64,000 nucleotides of DNA from Lytechinus pictus (Eukaryota). Of this stretch, positions 17,521-63,610 are shown one piece after another. Position 1 is the stretch's first letter, and each line of letters starts with the position of its first letter. The translations under genes and the position numbers were made by a program. Location: contig NC_087246.1 of the NCBI RefSeq assembly GCF_037042905.1, positions 13,844,233-13,908,232 of the forward strand, written 5' to 3'. Under the pieces are notes generated by a model. That model ran no database searches, was not told where the DNA came from, and was given only the letters and a program-made list of their open reading frames with translations.

Positions 17521-18618
17521 TCTCACCTGCATAGCAGTGTGAGACTATAGGCGCCGCTTTTCCGACGGCGGCGGCGGCGTCAACATCAAATCTTAACCTA
17601 AGGTTAAGTTTTTGAAATGACAGCATAACTTAGCAAGTATATGGACCTAGTTCATGAAACTTGGCCATAAGGTTAATCAAGTATTACTGAACATCCTGCC
17701 TGAGATTCATGTCACATGACCAAGGTCAAAGGTGATTTAGAGTCAATGAACTTAGACCATGTTGGGGGAATCAACATCAAAATCTTAACCTAAGGTTAAG
17801 TTTTTGAAATGTCATCATAACTTAAAAATGTATGGACCTAGTTCATGAAACTTGGACATAAGGTTAATCAAGTATCACTGAACATCCTGCATGAGTTTCA
17901 CGTCACATGACCAAGGTCAAAGGTCATTTAGGGTCAATGAACTTTGGCCAAATTGGGGGTATCTGTTGAATTACCATCATAACTTTGAAATTTTATGGAT
18001 CTGATTTATGAAACTTAGACATAATAGTAATCAAGTATCACTGAACATCCTGTGCAAGTTTCAGGTCACATGATTAAGGTCAAAGGTCATTTAGGGTCAA
18101 TGATCTTTGGCCAAATTGGGTGTATTTGTTGAATTACCATCATTACTTTGAAAGTATATTGGTCTAGTTCATTAAACTTGGACATATAAGAGTAATCAAG
18201 TATCACTGAACATCCTGTGCGCATTTCAGGTCACATGACCAAGGTTAAAGGTCAATGAACTTTGGGCGAATGGGGGTATCTGTTGAATTACCATCATAAC
18301 TTTGAAAGTTTATGGATCTGATTCATGAAAGTTGGACATAAGAGTAATCAAGTATCACTGCACATCCTGTGCGAGTTTCAGGTCACATGATCAAGGTCAA
18401 AGGTCATATAAGGTCAATGAACTTTGGCCAAATTGGGGGTATTTGTTGAATTACCATCATATCTCTGTAAGTGTATTGGTCTAGTTCATAAAACGTGGAC
18501 ATAAGAGTAACCAAGTATCACTGAACATCTTGTGCGAGTTATAGTAGGTTTCAAAGTCAGCACTGCTGCTATATTGAATCGCGTGATGCAGGTGAGACGG
18601 CCAGAGGCATTCCACTTG
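17521..18618 (+). mobile_element. TIR-bounded element (termini gtctcacctgca...tgcaggtgagac) carrying an internal satellite-like array of 5-6 units of about 170-190 bp
   Basis: Units recur with ggtcaaaggtcatttagggtcaatgaactttggccaaattgggggtat and atcaagtatcactgaacatcctg. A second copy lies in inverse orientation at 62830-63610. Confidence 0.7.
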
Positions 18619-30343: not shown

Positions 30344-31067
30344 GTGAGTAATTCTTGTCTAAACCAAAGTAATTAGTTTCTGGCACCTGTCCCAACTGAA
30401 CTTTCTTGTAATTTTTCATGTAAATAATTTATTGATCCATCAAATAACAGTCCATATCCTTTGATAAATCCCATCAGTAGTCATTTATATCCCTGTACAT
30501 GTTGTTGGGGGCTTCCCAGCATTTTATATCCTTCAAAACTTTCAGACCTGTTTAATACACATTATGTATCAAATTCCATGTTCAGTAATAATTCAGATAA
30601 CAAATAAAATCTCATTGTTTGATGAGCTTTAAGTATCAAATCATACTTGCAACATGTATAATAATTTAAGGAAAATGAAATAAAAACATTGATTTAAGTT
30701 TTTAGTAAGTTTGGATCTTTTTTCATTAATTTTAATTTGTTGAACTCAGACCGAATGAATGATAATCTTTAATGCCTTATTGATATTGCTCATGTTCCAA
30801 TTATATCACACTTGCACTCTGCATATATAGTTTGAATAAGGGACAACCCTTTGGCTGGGTTTTGTAAAATACATGCAATTGTGTAGTGATGCTAAAGATT
30901 TCCTGAAGATACATGTAGTATTGAATATTTCATTTAATTTGTCCATATCTCTTACATTCCTGGGATGGCGATAGTATGACAATATTTTTAACTTTTTAGC
31001 CCCTCTAAATTTTTTTTATTTGGATAATAATTTGATATTTTTTAAATATTCTTGTGTCTCCTTACAG

Positions 31068-31169: not shown

Positions 31170-31443
31170 GTAAGTTGCCAATGATAACAGTGCTTTGTGG
31201 CTACTACAGGGACTCTGTTGGTTTAATGGATATATTCGAATTTCAATTAATATAGACTACTTTGAGCTTAGGTTTATAGTGTGTGATAGGGTTTTTAATC
31301 AGAATAAATATGAGGACTATGATTCATGTTTGAGATTAGGTGTCATATTTGTCTTCATGTGCAGATTTTCTATTGGAGCAATTACCACTAGAGAAAACCT
31401 TCCTACCAATTGTCAAAACACAATTCTACATATTCTTTACCAG

Positions 31444-32485
31444 GTGTTATCAGCCATACCAGCGGCTATGAGAAACAGAAATACATGGCAGCGGTAAGTG
31501 TGTTACAATCAGATGACCCTGAAGACATTCAGCTCTTACCACCAGAAGAACGGGACAGTCTACTATCTAGTCCGGAGAAGAATGACAGCAGAGAAGAGAA
31601 CAAGAGACTGAAGGATGAATGGGATGACGATGATGATTGGGATGATGAAGAGGATACAGAGGAGAAGGTTGATAAGAAGAAGGTCACAGGAAGAATGGAT
31701 GCCTCGGATGAAGAAACCGATGATTCTGATGGAGATTTTGATGATGAAGATGATACAGAGAAGGAGATTGATAAGAAGAAGGTCACAGGAAAGATGGATG
31801 CTGCTGATGATGAAACCGATGATTCTGATGGTGATTGGGACGATGAAGATGATGAGGAAGAAGAAGAAGTTGTGGAACTTCTGGCAGAAATCAAAGAAAC
31901 TGAAAAAAAAGCCAAACTTGCTGCAAACCAAGCAAGTAAAGATGCAGAGAAAAATATACCCTCTGGTAAGACTGCTGATAAGGACAGCAAAGAATCAGAA
32001 GACAGCGACTTTGACTTTGACAATGATGATGAAGAAGAAGTTGAGTTTATGAATAAAAAACAGAGCAATGAAGCTCTGAAATCAGCCATGATAGTTAATA
32101 ATATCTCAGGAAATGTGAAATGTGTTGAAAATAATGCTTCCAAAAATACTGCCAATAGTACCAAGGTGCTAAAACAAGGTTCTGTTGAGAAGGACAATAT
32201 CTTGAAAGGCTCCCCCAAAGAACCTGTGACAAGAAAAACCTCTGTTGACAAAAAAGGCCTGTCTAGAACAACTTCCAGTGATTCTCTAGGTGCAGTGATC
32301 CCAGCGAATGTTTCAGTAGATGGGACTGAGCATGGGGCCAAAAAGGATTTCACAAAGGGAAGGAAGGTTGAGACTGAGATACCAGTAGAGGAGGAGAGTC
32401 CCAGGCGAGGAGATGTGAAGCCAACAAGAAGTGAGAGCAGTAGAAGTTCTGGGAGTGAGAAAGAAGAAAAGAAGAAGAAAGGAGG
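31444..32485 (+). CDS. Large gene exon 8 (1042 nt). A highly acidic, disordered region with a tandem 40-aa repeat (EEKVDKKKVTGRMDASDEETDDSDGDFDDEDDT and EKEIDKKKVTGKMDAADDETDDSDGDWDDEDDE), then a K/S-rich segment.
   Basis: Acceptor ttctttaccag|GT and a strong donor GGAGG|gtaaga. An in-frame TAA (32487-32489) lies inside the donor consensus, so the unspliced read stops there (ORF 31410..32489). Splicing continues in frame into exon 9. Confidence 0.7.
31655..31894 (+). repeat. Coding tandem duplication (2 x about 120 bp) inside exon 8
   Basis: Near-identical 120-bp units at 31655-31774 and 31775-31894, each encoding a K-rich then D/E-rich 40-aa unit. Confidence 0.8.
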
Positions 32486-32819
32486 GTAAGAAAACATGTC
32501 AATACGTTATGAAAGTCTCTTGATTTTTCACCATTGCGTTATAATAGTAACTTCCAATTCCAAAGACACATGCTGTAAACATCGTTTACTGGTAGACGAT
32601 GAACACAAAAAAAGGTGAGGAAAAAGAAGAATCCTTTATCAATCATTTAACCATTTTAGAAATCTATAGATATAAAGTTTGTTGAATTTAATGTATCTTT
32701 TTTCTTTTACCTGTTTTTCATCACTGAAGAGATGCTTTATTAATCCAACTTTTTTAGTCTAAATCTCACTATCGAAAGAAAAAGACTATTTTGAATGTGT
32801 ATGATTCTTGTTCATGTAG

Positions 32820-32917
32820 ACTCTTCAAGCTGAAAGAAGTGATCTCCCCGTCAAATTGGAAGAAGAGTCCAAGAGATAGCAACACCATTCATGTATGGAC
32901 AGATGTTGGACAAACAG
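32820..32917 (+). CDS. Large gene exon 9 (GLFKLKEVISPSNWKKSPRDSNTIHVWTDVGQT)
   Basis: Acceptor catgtag|A and donor AACAG|gtatcc; phase 2 in, phase 1 out. Same frame as ORF 32791..33063. Confidence 0.65.
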
Positions 32918-37549: not shown

Positions 37550-37636
37550 ATAAGCTTGGGGTCTTCTTACGGGTCTTCTGAAGTTCTTTGCTCATCACGT
37601 ATCGACAATGAAAAATTGTCCAAACTTGAAAAGGAG
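37550..37636 (+). CDS. Candidate cassette exon (ISLGSSYGSSEVLCSSRIDNEKLSKLEKE), 87 nt, phase 0 in and out
   Basis: Acceptor ttctaacag|ATA and donor AAGGAG|gtatgc; open frame, length a multiple of 3. No other support. Confidence 0.35.
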
Positions 37637-46511: not shown

Positions 46512-46723
46512 ATCGAGGAAGCCAAGAAGAAGGCTGCCATTTCTCCCCGTGGTGCTCCCAACTTCTACAACACCTTGCCTCATAACCAGCAGTTTTCAGT
46601 GTTTGCTCTACATGCTAGTGCAAGCTCACAGGGTTTTCACTTTCAGGTGGCTGAACAAAACTCTCAGAGTGGAGTCTACATACAGAGCTGTCGCTCTGCA
46701 GATGTGCTGCGTGTTGGTGATAG
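46512..46723 (+). CDS. Large gene exon 19 (IEEAKKKAAISPRGAPNFYNTLPHNQQFSVFALHASASSQGFHFQVAEQNSQSGVYIQSCRSADVLRVGD), N-terminal half of the PDZ domain
   Basis: Acceptor ttttag|ATCGAGG and donor GATAG|gtgagt; 212 nt, phase 0 in, phase 2 out. A PDZ-like beta-strand pattern with QGFHF in place of the usual GLGF loop. Confidence 0.65.
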
Positions 46724-47223
46724 GTGAGTATACCACTTTCATAAAACTTGTTATTGATATGTCATAATGTCTCTGATATAAGCTACAGAAATAGTCCTAA
46801 TTTGTTGGCTGAAAATAGGGTGTTCATCGATAATAAGTTCTATGAAACAGCACTGTATTCATATTTGTAATATATTAGTATCGGACATTTTCTGTTGAGG
46901 TTGCCATTAATTTGTACATTTTATTAAAACTTCCTTCAAAATTATGTTTTTATAATTTTATATTAGATCCCCTTTAAAAATACAGATATGAAACTTATAT
47001 ATTACATTTATGTCAGTGTAAAAATGGATCAATGATCAAGACCTGTCTCATGAGAAAGATAAATATGATATGTGAGATAGTTGCCTGTATGATTGCCTGA
47101 ACATGTTTATATATAGTATGAAAAACCATCACTGAGACACAATGATATTGCTTTATTTACAGTAGAATGAGGATTGTTTTTCAGATAGCACTTTAATTTT
47201 ATCCTTGAAATCTTGTACAACAG

Positions 47224-47442: not shown

Positions 47443-47454
47443 GTAAGATAATAG

Positions 47455-50027: not shown

Positions 50028-50168
50028 GATGAGATACTTCATGTGCTTCAAGATGAGTTAGAGGAAGCAGGGAGACAGAAACAGTATTTAGATCAACTCT
50101 ATACCCTTATGTTAGAGAGAGCTCCAGAGCTATTAGAACATCTAGAACAGGACTTTGAAGGAAGGTAG
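50028..50168 (+). CDS. Large gene terminal coding exon (DEILHVLQDELEEAGRQKQYLDQLYTLMLERAPELLEHLEQDFEGR*), stop TAG at 50166-50168
   Basis: Acceptor tttgatag|GAT; the in-frame TAG overlaps a donor-like AAGG|TAGGT. No convincing downstream exon was found, so I treat it as terminal. Confidence 0.6.
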   Translation, partial: DEILHVLQDELEEAGRQKQYLDQLYTLMLERAPELLEHLEQDFEGR

Positions 50169-51796
50169 GTATCAATGAAATTAGAAACTTACATCAAGCC
50201 TAGGGTCACTTTATAAGGTTACACATGGTTTGCAAACATATGGAGTGCCAAAAAAAGATGTTACATGTTTCCTCAATTCAAAGTCTTTTCATTAATCATC
50301 TATATGGTGTGGCATGAAATGTACTTAAATTGTAATTAAAAGTAAAAATGTCAGTCTATGTGATTATACTACATGTATACATAGATTATAATTCAATGTA
50401 AGCTGATTGGGACATTACACTTGACTTATTTCAACTTGATTAAACTTACTGGCTCTTATTTCTACTATTTTTTATTTCTTCCCTTGTATTATTCAGTGAA
50501 TTGTCAGGCAGCGAAGAATTCTGCTAGTTCTCAACTCAATTTCTGCTACCAAGCAGCGAGATGGACAACTCACTTTTTATTCCAGTATTGGAAGTCAGCA
50601 TCAGGAAGCAATTACTAGTCATCACATTTTGTCATTGTTACTTGTATTGCAGATTTGTTATTGCTACGGTTGATACATTCTATTCATTATTACTGATCTT
50701 ATTTGCCTTCAACCTTGAGAGGATGGGGGGGGGCATAAAGTCCAATTCACCCCCCCCCCCCCTCGCATGTCACCCTATTATTCTGAAATGCGCAGGGATA
50801 ATCCTGTATGTGCAACTTCACAAAATTCTTCTTTGAAGTCTTGTGTAGCTTTTGAAGTCAAGTAAATATGGATCCATTTCTTTAGCACAGCGAATATGAA
50901 AGCACTCTACTGCACCCATTGACCTCACCTTAGTTGAGTGTTGCATAATGTAGATGAATTTCTTGCTGAAGGAAATATAACACTACGACTGGAATTCAAA
51001 CCCATGGCCCACATACTTGGTCCATAGTTATTATACGCAACAAAATATTTCTCCTGTCTCTGCAATATTTTTTGTTGCCTCATATTCCCATTGACAAAAA
51101 GACACATAATTTTTCTCAGCAATTAATGTTTGTACAACATGAAACATGCATCCAAAGGGTATGCTTTTATTATTTTCATTGAATTATAATTTATGAAAAC
51201 TTGTATACTTGCACTGTTTTCTTTACGCTCAGCTTCTAAACGTTATTAATATGAAAAATGAACTAGTATTATGCAATATTTTGGTATTCCTGTCTTGTGT
51301 GCTTGGACTTTGGTTTTGATTCGTATTCTGTAATGCACCTTGAATTGTATATTCTATTTCATTTTCAGTCCATCCACTGCCTAATATTGCACTCAAATAA
51401 TGAAAAAAAATTATATTTATCCAGATTTATATTTTGATGGAATTTCATTTTATATGTGTAGTACAGAAATAGCATTTTCTTTAGCTAGGATTACACATTT
51501 CTGCCTCACTCAAAGTTCTGCCATGAAGCCTGTGTGTGAGGACTGTTAATATCTCAAATCAAACAAGAAAAGTTGGTCTTTATGGTCAAATTGAATCTGT
51601 ACAGGAATTTTAGCTGAATACTGGCCCACTAGTATGATTAAGTCTAGTAGTGTAATAAAATGATTGCAGTACAGTATTCAGTGAGTACATCCCTCATAAA
51701 AAACATCAACTTTTCAGTGCAGTTCTTCACCAAAATCTTGAACCAAAAAAATAATTAAAGAATAGAGGAGACATGAGAAGATGTATCATCTTTTAA

Positions 51797-56502: not shown

Positions 56503-57141
56503 CTGAATATATAACAAGTAATAAATTGTTCTTGAATTCATATATGAATCACAAAGTCTTTTTCAAGTAGGTAAATTTCATACACAAAACCAATATATAT
56601 TACTACTTCATACACTTGATTTGGTAGAATCCCATTTTTTCTAAAACTTTTATTTATTTATCTATTCATGAAATTATTTATTACATCTTTACTCATCAGA
56701 GTAGCCCCATTATTCATTAGAATACTGTTATAAAACACCCGATTGCTCCATACAACATATAAGCAAATACAATCTAAAACAAAATAACACTCCTTCAAGT
56801 CAGGCTAATTGGTCAGGAGACAAAACACGCAAAACTAAGTGGACTGAGCAACAATTCACTAATTTGATCAAAGACAATATATGATTAGAACAGCAATTAG
56901 AACAACTGAATGAATATCATACAGATTAATCCATACTGGTGTTAGATGATATGGAAATTAGACAATAGGGTATTTGACCAAGAAGCTATAAACCACTTCA
57001 AAATATGCTATCTGACCAGATGGACATTAAAGTCACTTACAATTGTTCTTAAATAGAAAAATAGTATAAACTTTGGTCTTAAAATGGCATATCAGGACTT
57101 GAATTCCCCTATCCCTGAAGAAGAAATGTGAGTAACCATAC

Positions 57142-57353
57142 CTCTGTGGTGTTCTTCCAGCACTCCTGTGTGGAACCTGTTGTTGTGTAGGAGTACTCCC
57201 ACCCCATGACTGGCGAGGAGTGGTTCGTGATTGGTACTGGGGTGTGCCCTGGGGTGTCAAGCCTGCCACAGAAGGGGTACGGGCGGGGTTGATCTGGGGG
57301 GTCCTGTTTACCTGTGGGGTGCGGGCTACACCTCCCTGAGGGGTGCGCATTCC
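57142..57353 (-). CDS. SUPT6H: SPT6 exon (GMRTPQGGVARTPQVNRTPQINPARTPSVAGLTPQGTPQYQSRTTPRQSWGGSTPTQQQVPHRSAGRTPQ)
   Basis: Acceptor tcttccag|GGAATGCGC and donor CACAGAG|gtatgg; 212 nt, phase 0 in, phase 2 out. Matches ORF 57033..57401(-). Confidence 0.8.
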
Positions 57354-58207
57354 CTGGAAGATATTATGAAGGCCAAATATATGGTCAAACATGCAGTACA
57401 AGTAGCATATTTATTTCTTATACAAAACTACTATTACCAAACTTTTATCCTTACAGTTGACCAAAAAACTTCCTAACACTTCAGATAGAAAACATATTCA
57501 CTGAGTGTGAATGGAAATAATTCTATATTTCTACAAAATACAATTTAACTCCATGAAAATATTTTTTTCATCACTTTAGGACATCCTATAAGGTTTTCTG
57601 TTTTTCTTCTTTTTTTTTTTACTATCATATAATAATAGTGACATTAACATTATAATACTTAAAACAGATACGAACCAATATCGCCATCTCGAGTCCTCAA
57701 CTACTCATACCTGGCCAGTTTCCTGACCCATAATGCTAGTGTAGTCTAGTAATATAGACCCACTTAAATGATAACGTGCTAATTAACTACTCAATACATT
57801 TATACCGCAATAATTATGTTACCAAGTAGCAAAACAATTCCTTTTCTTTTCAAAAATTTAAGCTTCTCTATACGAATACAATTATAGGTCAATTTATTCT
57901 CTGTAGTATTAGTAGATATCTGAAAACGTACATTTTAACACAATGTATTTATAACACACAGTCAATGAGAGACCACACACAGTTCACTCCCCCTTTAAAA
58001 TCTGACACATTGCCTAAAAAAAAAACACCTCAGAATAGAATTTAACCGAATAACTTAAAGACTTTCAAAGAAGTGTGTCATTTTCTCAATAAAGATCATA
58101 AAATACAAGCGATTCCATTATGCATTGCTCTATGCCAAAATGCATGTGAATATTCTATAACTCTTTGCTCTTTCAGAAAACAAGAACAAATCCAGAAACC
58201 CTCTCAC

Positions 58208-58413
58208 CTGGTAAGAAGGAGTGGCACCAACAGGTGTAGTGATATTCTGTGGGGTAGTGTAGGGGTAGCCATAACCATAGCGACCTGCTGCTGTACCAGT
58301 CAAGGGTGTCTGACGGCCTGGAGTCTGTCGAGGGGTACCTTGAAGCACACTGGGCGTGGCATACATACCCCCTGTGAATGTGGTACCGGTCTTTTGGATC
58401 ATGGGTGTGCCCG
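58208..58413 (-). CDS. SUPT6H: SPT6 exon (TGTPMIQKTGTTFTGGMYATPSVLQGTPRQTPGRQTPLTGTAAGRYGYGYPYTTPQNITTPVGATPSYQ)
   Basis: Acceptor tttcaccag|CGGGCAC and donor TTACCAG|gtgaga; 206 nt, phase 1 in, phase 0 out. Matches ORF 58130..58468(-). Confidence 0.8.
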
Positions 58414-58806
58414 CTGGTGAAAAATCATTAAGCAAATTCATGAATATCAAATAAAATATGGAAAACATAAAACTATTATATTAAATTTTTTACAAATTTC
58501 TTTCATTTCTAAGTATGAGCTGTAATCAAGCATAGAAAAACTCTATTCGTTTACAAGTAAACTTGGTTGTATGAACAAAAGCTTTAAGACATGCAAGAAG
58601 AAATATTGATAAACTATTGTAAAACAATTTTTCTATTTTTTTTTTCCTCCTCAAAGAAAAAAAATGAAAATATGGACAACACACATGACCTAAGATCATT
58701 ATCAATGCTACCATGGTCATTATCATCATCAAAATGAAAAATCAAACTTGTTGATGTCTTCAGTACTTGGTAAAGACACCAAAGAGAATACAAATGTCTT
58801 ACTCAC

Positions 58807-62829: not shown

Positions 62830-63610
62830 AACAAGTGGAATGCCTCTGGCGGTCTCACTTGCCTCACGAGATTCAATATAGCAGCAGTGCTGACTTTGAA
62901 AACTACTATAACTTGCACAAGATGTTCAGTGATACTTGGTTACTCTTATGTACACGTTCTATGAACTAGACCAATACACTTACACAGATATGATGGTAAT
63001 TCATCAGAGACCCCCATTATGGCCAAAGTTCATTGACCTTTGACCTTGGTCATGTGACCTGAAATGCGCACAGGATGTTCAGTGATACTTGATTACTATT
63101 ATGTCCAAGTTTCATGAATCAGATCCATAAACTTTCAAAGTTATGATGGTAATTCAACAGATACCCCCAATTCGGCCAAAGTTCATTGACCCTAAATGAC
63201 CTTTGACCTTGGTCATGTGACGTGAAACTCGTGCAGGATGTTCAGTGATACTTTATTAACCTTATGTCCAAATTTCATGAACTAGGTCCATATATTTTCT
63301 AAGTTATGATGACATTTCAAAAACTTAACCTTAAGTTAAGATTTTGATGTTGATTCCCCCAACATGGTCCAAGTTCATTGACCCTAAATGACCTTTGACC
63401 TCGGTCATGTGACATGAAACTCAGGCAGGATGTTCAGTAATACTTGATTGACCTTATGGCCAAGTTTCATGAACTAGGTCCATATACTTTCTAAGTAATG
63501 TTGTCATTTCAAAAACTTAACCTTCGGTTAAGATTTGGTGTTGACGCCGCCGCCGCCGCCGCCGTCGAAAAAGCGGCGCCTATAGTCTCACTCTGCTATG
63601 CAGGTGAGAC
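62830..63610 (-). mobile_element. Second, shorter copy of the satellite-carrying TIR element, inverted relative to 17521-18618, inside a SUPT6H intron
   Basis: 62830-62900 is the reverse complement of 18545-18618. 63540-63610 (gacgccgccgccgccgccgtcgaaaaagcggcgcctatagtctcac) is the reverse complement of 17521-17590. Confidence 0.75.

Follow-up and report, generated by a model that had tools for sequence, protein, structure and literature searches.

In-frame stop codons in the phase-2 splice donors of a sea-urchin gene for a SAM-RA-PDZ protein

We consider it very likely that the two splice donors with embedded in-frame stop codons described here belong to the ordinary U2-type GT-AG class and are used constitutively, both at phase-2 introns of a 27-exon gene carried by the window (the whole 64,000-nucleotide stretch of Lytechinus pictus DNA that was analysed). 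At the first, the donor of intron 8, the exon ends in GGAGG (32481-32485) and the intron begins with GTAAGA (32486-32491), placing a TAA at 32487-32489; at the second, the donor of intron 26, the exon ends in GGAAG (50160-50164) and the intron begins with GTAGGT (50165-50170), placing a TAG at 50166-50168. Both introns are of phase 2 (cumulative CDS length modulo 3 equal to 2), which puts the stops in frame, and each stop forms the first full codon of its own intron. The earlier note that drew attention to this arrangement was right that both stops are present and located the second exactly, but its position for the first (32485-32490) was one base low.

Such stops follow from the donor consensus. 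In a phase-2 intron the split codon is completed by the first G (+1), such that the next codon occupies +2 to +4, and a GT(A/G)A or GTAG consensus then leaves TAA, TGA or TAG as the only possibilities for it; as it is recognition by U1 snRNA that shapes the donor, the in-frame stop is a by-product of that recognition and no purpose-built switch. Normal splicing would connect 32485 to 32820, leading on into two RA domains, one PDZ domain and the coiled coils, and 50164 to 50497, so that ten final residues (SELSGSEEFC) precede a stop codon at 50525-50527. Both introns are canonical in form (GT...AG, with a polypyrimidine tract and a YAG acceptor), intron 8 extending from AGG/GTAAGA to TTGTTCATGTAG/A and intron 26 from AAG/GTAGGT to CCCTTGTATTATTCAG/T. 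From what could be observed directly, namely the sequence, the intron phases, base rates, conservation across the junctions and the gene structures of orthologues, we infer that splicing at both donors would be the dominant outcome in this species.

The gene and its orthologues

The forward strand of the window holds one large gene, with 27 exons and a 4872-nt CDS for 1623 amino acids, coding between 20304 and 50527. The composition of the window (approximately 33% G+C), the interruption of coding sequence by GT-AG introns, and homology together identify a eukaryotic locus of sea-urchin type. The gene model was started from tblastn cores and frame-consistent GT-AG junctions, and in exon number, sizes and phases it agrees with isoform X1 of Strongylocentrotus purpuratus LOC589102. 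Domains follow the order SAM, SAM, acidic repeat, RA, RA, coiled coil, PDZ, coiled coil, C-terminal helix and EEFC tail, with the SAM, RA and PDZ domains identified by Pfam on the exon translations.

A protein search with a composite query returned uncharacterised proteins from the starfish Patiria and Asterias, the brittle star Amphiura, the sea cucumber Apostichopus and the acorn worm Ptychodera, along with an old S. purpuratus model (XP_011673032.1). The same kind of search with the C-terminal 337 residues gave no match at E <= 0.001, though true homologues exist: a later, exhaustive HMMER search with the last 75 residues recovered LOC589102 isoforms X1 and X2. Orthologue gene structures were obtained by exact protein-to-genome mapping for two proteins, that of Amphiura filiformis and S. 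purpuratus X1; mapped onto its own genome (L002), X1 occupies 27 exons with the same phases as those of the window and near-equal sizes, and this agreement in exon number, phase and size independently validates the gene model.

Judged by these sequence comparisons, the gene is the orthologue of S. purpuratus LOC589102 (XP_030847644.1 and XP_030847646.1, each an ‘uncharacterized protein’), with which it shares 27 exons, intron phases, domain order and the ...SELSGSEEFC end, at an exon nucleotide identity of approximately 84%. It differs in belonging to another sea-urchin species, in having an exon 8 that is 84 nt longer and in the donor of its last intron (GTAGGT, as against GTACGT in S. purpuratus). 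The closest known proteins are that of LOC589102 and its counterparts from starfish, brittle star, sea cucumber, crinoid, acorn worm and amphioxus. A literature search for the protein accession numbers found no match, and no Rfam family was detected within the whole window.

Most introns of the gene have no blastn match in S. purpuratus. Exon 14 (37550-37636, forward strand; 87 nt, phase 0/0, encoding ISLGSSYGSSEVLCSSRIDNEKLSKLEKE) lies in better-conserved surroundings: the two species agree throughout the final 17 nt of intron 13 (100% identity) and at 83% of positions in the initial 62 nt of intron 14. Its 29 residues are the sole difference between S. purpuratus X1 (1588 aa) and X2 (1559 aa, which omits it), and no other exon of the orthologue is annotated as alternatively used; on this comparison it looks like a regulated cassette exon. 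The start of intron 6 (30344-30421) is also unlike most of the introns, with its first 78 nt being 77% identical to S. purpuratus, and this segment, which adjoins the 51-nt exon 6, may be a splicing-regulatory element.

Two further features of the window lie outside the gene. Upstream of it, at 17580-18540, is a tandem array with periods of approximately 163, 191 and 317 nt, part of whose unit recurs, by eye, in reversed orientation within a 192-nt tandem repeat at 63179-63544; the two probably belong to an interspersed or satellite repeat family. On the minus strand, at 57033-57401 and 58130-58468, there are open frames rich in T-P, R-T-P-Q and G-T-P (for example RTPQGGVARTPQVNRTPQINPARTP), which may belong, as exons, to an adjacent gene on that strand that has a Thr-Pro repeat region; a Pfam search of these TP-rich minus-strand frames between 56 and 59 kb gave no match.

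How common such stops are

A stop triplet (TAA, TAG or TGA) stands at +2 to +4 in 20 of the 26 donors of this gene, and four of its five phase-2 introns open with an immediate in-frame stop. Besides the donors of intron 8 (AGG/GTAAGA, 32486-32491) and intron 26 (AAG/GTAGGT, 50165-50170), these are the donors, likewise on the forward strand and of phase 2, of intron 20 (TAG/GTGAGT, 46724-46729, following the exon that ends at 46723), with an in-frame TGA at 46725-46727, and of intron 21 (TAG/GTAAGA, 47443-47448, following 47442), with an in-frame TAA at 47444-47446. The earlier note had thus picked out two of four identical cases within the one gene and left those of introns 20 and 21 unflagged; only the phase-2 intron that follows 45199, which begins GTATAT, lacks an immediate stop. 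Phase-2 donors are not enriched for stop triplets, which occur in four of five of them as against 16 of the 21 other donors (Fisher p = 1.0).

The orthologues give comparable figures. In Amphiura filiformis, for which the annotated protein was mapped exactly, 21 of 27 donors carry a stop triplet and three of four phase-2 introns start with an immediate stop; in S. purpuratus the counts are 16 of 26 and two of five, respectively. Pooled over the three orthologues, 57 of 79 donors (72%) have the triplet and nine of 14 phase-2 introns (64%) the immediate stop, so that the arrangement at the two sites is no more than chance, given the donor consensus, predicts. The identity of the stop also drifts between species, as expected of a by-product of the consensus: at the first site it is TAA in the window, TAA in S. 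purpuratus and TGA in Amphiura, and at the second the window has TAG and Amphiura TAA, with no stop (TAC) in S. purpuratus. A stop directly after exon 8 is thus present in all three species, for which chance alone would give approximately 0.72^3 = 37%; selection, either for a truncated product or for surveillance by nonsense-mediated decay (NMD), would also give it.

The stops in phase-2 donors are a textbook, and already known, consequence of a donor consensus complementary to U1. The rule concerning stops within the 5' splice-site consensus of phase-2 introns has been stated explicitly (Farlow et al. 2010, PLoS Genet, PMC2809761), and 209 Yarrowia introns with exactly such a stop have been described, together with the rule for GTGAGT and GTAAGT (Mekouar et al. 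2010, Genome Biol, PMC2911113). Both papers discuss the immediate premature stop that follows intron retention as helping NMD in its surveillance of transcripts left unspliced (PMC2809761, PMC2911113). The systems described there resemble the present gene in that a phase-2 GT(A/G)A donor yields TAA or TGA as the first full intronic codon; our second site is of the less common GTAG type, giving TAG, which is unlisted in those papers, but the logic is unchanged and we see no other substantial difference.

That the two sites are genuine donors, as the earlier note held, is borne out by the gene model, by the conserved peptides across the junctions and by the introns of the orthologues. Their description as ‘strong’ fares less well, since against a crude generic donor matrix they rank approximately 13th (first site) and 7th (second site) of 26, which is mid-range.

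The exon 8/exon 9 junction and a hypothetical truncated product

Exon 8 (31444-32485, forward strand; 1042 nt) encodes the acidic region and ends ...EKEEKKKKG-G(G); it is followed by intron 8 (32486-32819; 334 nt) and by exon 9 (32820-32917), which encodes (G)LFKLKEVISPSNWKK...VWTDVGQT and begins the first RA region. The open reading frame at 31410-32489, to which the earlier note referred, does figure in the mechanical list of open frames, but the true exon starts at 31444. Within exon 8, at 31635-31864, there is an in-frame 99-nt (33-residue) tandem repeat in 2.3 copies, with the acidic unit DDxDDE...KKKVTG(R/K)MDA...DDSDGD. The exon has 958 nt in S. purpuratus, and the acidic region therefore varies in length between species.

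Joining 32485 to 32820 gives ...SGSEKEEKKKKG-G-LFKLKEVISPSNWKK...VWTDVGQTG, and the peptide that spans this junction, KKKKGG/LFKLKEVISP, is matched in every homologue by KKKKGG/LSKLKGVISP or a similar sequence. Six classes or phyla are represented among the proteins that continue through it without a break, examples being KKKKGGLFKLKEAISP in S. purpuratus X1 and X2, KKKKGGLSKLKGVISP in a starfish, RKKKTGIMKLVGAISP in a brittle star, KKKGGFSKLKEVITP in a crinoid and KMKKGFSRLKEVVSP in amphioxus, such that junction peptides are conserved across echinoderm classes, acorn worm and amphioxus. The intron itself interrupts the same codon position in the same phase in S. purpuratus (AGG/GTAAGA) and in Amphiura (TGG/GTGAGT). 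As the regions encoded downstream (RA, PDZ and coiled coil) are likewise conserved parts of the protein, splicing across this junction would be the normal outcome here, as it is annotated to be in the orthologues.

Truncated isoforms can be produced, as a general mechanism, by intronic polyadenylation or by intron retention, and the earlier note took the first site to be a classic route to one. It was correct that, were this donor left unspliced, translation would stop at once, after two SAM domains and the acidic repeat, as the in-frame TAA and the gene model both indicate. The predicted length of ‘about 560 aa’ was too short, as reading through 32485 would give 836 aa, and for the route itself we found no support beyond the stop, which follows automatically from the donor consensus.

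The reading at issue supposes regulated processing of intron 8, with occasional retention of the intron or else cleavage and polyadenylation within it, so that the TAA at 32487 ends an 836-residue SAM-SAM-acidic protein; through contacts between SAM domains such a protein, if real, could act as a competitor of the full-length scaffold. We regard this as very improbable. The stop does fall directly after exon 8, such that no foreign tail would be added, and S. purpuratus and Amphiura likewise have a stop at the corresponding donor, but a stop arises automatically at any phase-2 GTAA or GTGA donor. Loci that use intronic polyadenylation or retention share with this one an in-frame stop shortly past an unspliced donor and upstream of the exons for downstream domains, but what defines them is an intronic poly(A) signal, transcript 3' ends or retained-intron reads, and conserved intronic elements; intron 8, when searched for a canonical signal and for conserved elements, showed neither. 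Between 32486 and 32819 there is neither an AATAAA nor an ATTAAA, only a single weak variant (TATAAA) at 32671; with a background of 2.7 canonical poly(A) hexamers per kb in the introns of this gene, that finding is by itself unremarkable. In the comparison with S. purpuratus, blastn gave no HSP between the two copies of intron 8, in contrast to the conserved intron ends that flank exon 14.

Annotated proteins point the same way. Every retrieved isoform that covers the junction splices through it; the retrieved current S. purpuratus models, X1 (1588 aa) and X2 (1559 aa), are both full length and include no truncated form; and the shorter isoforms annotated in amphioxus and crinoid are cut short at the N-terminus and keep the EEFC end. 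The one point in favour of truncation from this source is the old S. purpuratus model XP_011673032.1 (P0005, 680 aa), which ends exactly at ...KKKKGG, at the stop in the donor of S. purpuratus intron 8, and is the only model to do so. We rejected it as a real truncated isoform: it is an obsolete prediction whose exon order is scrambled relative both to the window and to the current S. purpuratus assembly, with exons 12-15 placed ahead of exons 4-8. A word-indexed protein search with exon 8 and exons 9-11, directed at transcript-derived proteins that stop at KKKKGG, returned only this old model.

XP_011673032.1 is one of three old S. purpuratus models that split the locus at intron 8, all superseded by LOC589102 X1 and X2 on the current assembly. 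Of the other two, XP_011673031.1 (935 aa) contains the N-terminus and continues over the junction, and XP_011673033.1 (803 aa) begins at a putative first exon within S. purpuratus intron 8. This is an ATG-bearing mini-exon, MACCDESNVFSEIKIAY, with the donor CAG/GTACAT, at 14733-14785 of L002, spliced to exon 9. As a candidate for a conserved internal promoter it was set aside, three 6-7-residue pieces of its peptide being absent, by exact search, from all frames of the window; gene prediction on the old, fragmented assembly probably created the mini-exon as an artefact, and an internal promoter in S. purpuratus intron 8 is conceivable.

An mRNA that retained intron 8 would also have 18 exon junctions downstream of the stop, making it, on the exon-junction model, a predicted target of NMD, and we would expect such transcripts to be decay substrates and no source of stable protein. 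A stronger form of the same proposal, in which regulated retention or premature cleavage in intron 8 yields a stable head-only protein of approximately 836 aa, perhaps acting as a dominant-negative partner of the SAM-RA-PDZ scaffold, strikes us as more doubtful still.

The last intron and the carboxy-terminus

The second site was taken by the earlier note to hold the terminal stop of the gene, with the proviso that the gene would extend further if the donor were used. It is the proviso that holds: the donor at 50164/50165 joins the acceptor at 50496/50497, and the gene ends one small exon downstream. The penultimate exon 26 (50028-50164, forward strand) encodes DEILHVLQDELEEAGRQKQYLDQLYTLMLERAPELLEHLEQDFEG; intron 26, the last (50165-50496; 332 nt), has a polypyrimidine tract and a CAG acceptor; and exon 27 (50497-50527; 31 nt), the true last coding exon, encodes (S)ELSGSEEFC, followed by TAG at 50525-50527. 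The acceptor, TTCTTCCCTTGTATTATTCAG/T, is strong and lies 332 nt downstream of the donor; joining AG to T creates a Ser codon, after which ELSGSEEFC completes a tail identical to that of S. purpuratus X1 and X2. Downstream of exon 27, AATAAA hexamers at 51654 and 51829 are candidate poly(A) signals.

All full-length homologues run 10-11 residues past the position aligned with the TAG, with the pattern ...[AGI]SELSxxEEFC; beyond the aligned ...DFE[GA] they end in SELSDNEEFC, SEISGDEEFC or SELSGSEEFC, in sea urchin, starfish, brittle star, sea cucumber, crinoid, acorn worm, amphioxus and a bivalve (pearl oyster, P0017). As 50497-50527 encodes this same ...EEFC tail, the donor is used and the TAG at 50166-50168 was wrongly read as the terminal stop. 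In Amphiura the corresponding site is a phase-2 intron of 1720 nt with the donor CAG/GTAAAT (hence TAA), leading to the same mini-exon, whereas in S. purpuratus the donor is AAG/GTACGT, which contains no stop and leaves the frame open for 32 codons into the intron; the TAG of the window is therefore a species-level accident of donor sequence.

It might still be argued that some mRNAs keep intron 26 and stop at 50166-50168, giving a protein that ends ...EQDFEGR and lacks the SELSGSEEFC tail. The stop is immediate both in this species and in Amphiura, and retention of a last intron would in principle be insensitive to NMD, there being no junction downstream; but the S. purpuratus donor (GTACGT) means that the stop is not a conserved feature, and read-through there would instead add 32 unrelated residues. 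ATTAAA occurs twice in intron 26, at 50335 and 50439, yet this density is close to background for these AT-rich introns, and the intron is not conserved with S. purpuratus by blastn. No annotated homologue ends at the second site. We therefore hold a tail-less isoform to be the least probable of the outcomes weighed here, and retain the view that intron 26 is removed and exon 27 joined. Four short open frames (67-112 aa, from ENA and Logan contigs of 0.5-7 kb) do run from exon 26 into the intron, two of them (P0012 and P0015) stopping immediately and two (P0011 and P0013) not; P0011-P0013 and P0015 are most simply explained as exon open frames read on into the intron, and not as transcripts.

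The helix encoded by exon 26, EILHVLQDELEEAGRQKQYLDQLYTLMLERAPELLE, has as its best Pfam match RBD-FIP (PF09457), covering profile positions 1-39 of 41 at 14.8 bits (E = 0.025), below the Pfam gathering cut-off of 23.3; its best PDB matches are chains of Rab11-FIP3, at E-values of 0.07-0.2 with either a single sequence or a six-sequence profile. This helix may therefore bind Rab11, in a SAM-SAM-RA-RA-PDZ family that otherwise has no name.

The carboxy-terminal ...EEFC is invariant from sea urchins to pearl oyster (homologues P0001-P0031), with some short relatives ending in ...QWC or ...GWC. We take this acidic-aromatic-Cys end to resemble the tails of PDZ ligands, and the protein that carries it has a PDZ domain of its own.

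Stops in phase-2 donors are, then, no signal worth flagging in genome scans, given that approximately two thirds of such introns have one. Annotation of this gene needs the 31-nt terminal exon at 50497-50527, the source of the deeply conserved ...EEFC; in what is otherwise an uncharacterised SAM-RA-PDZ scaffold protein, this carboxy-terminus is probably the end that matters for function.
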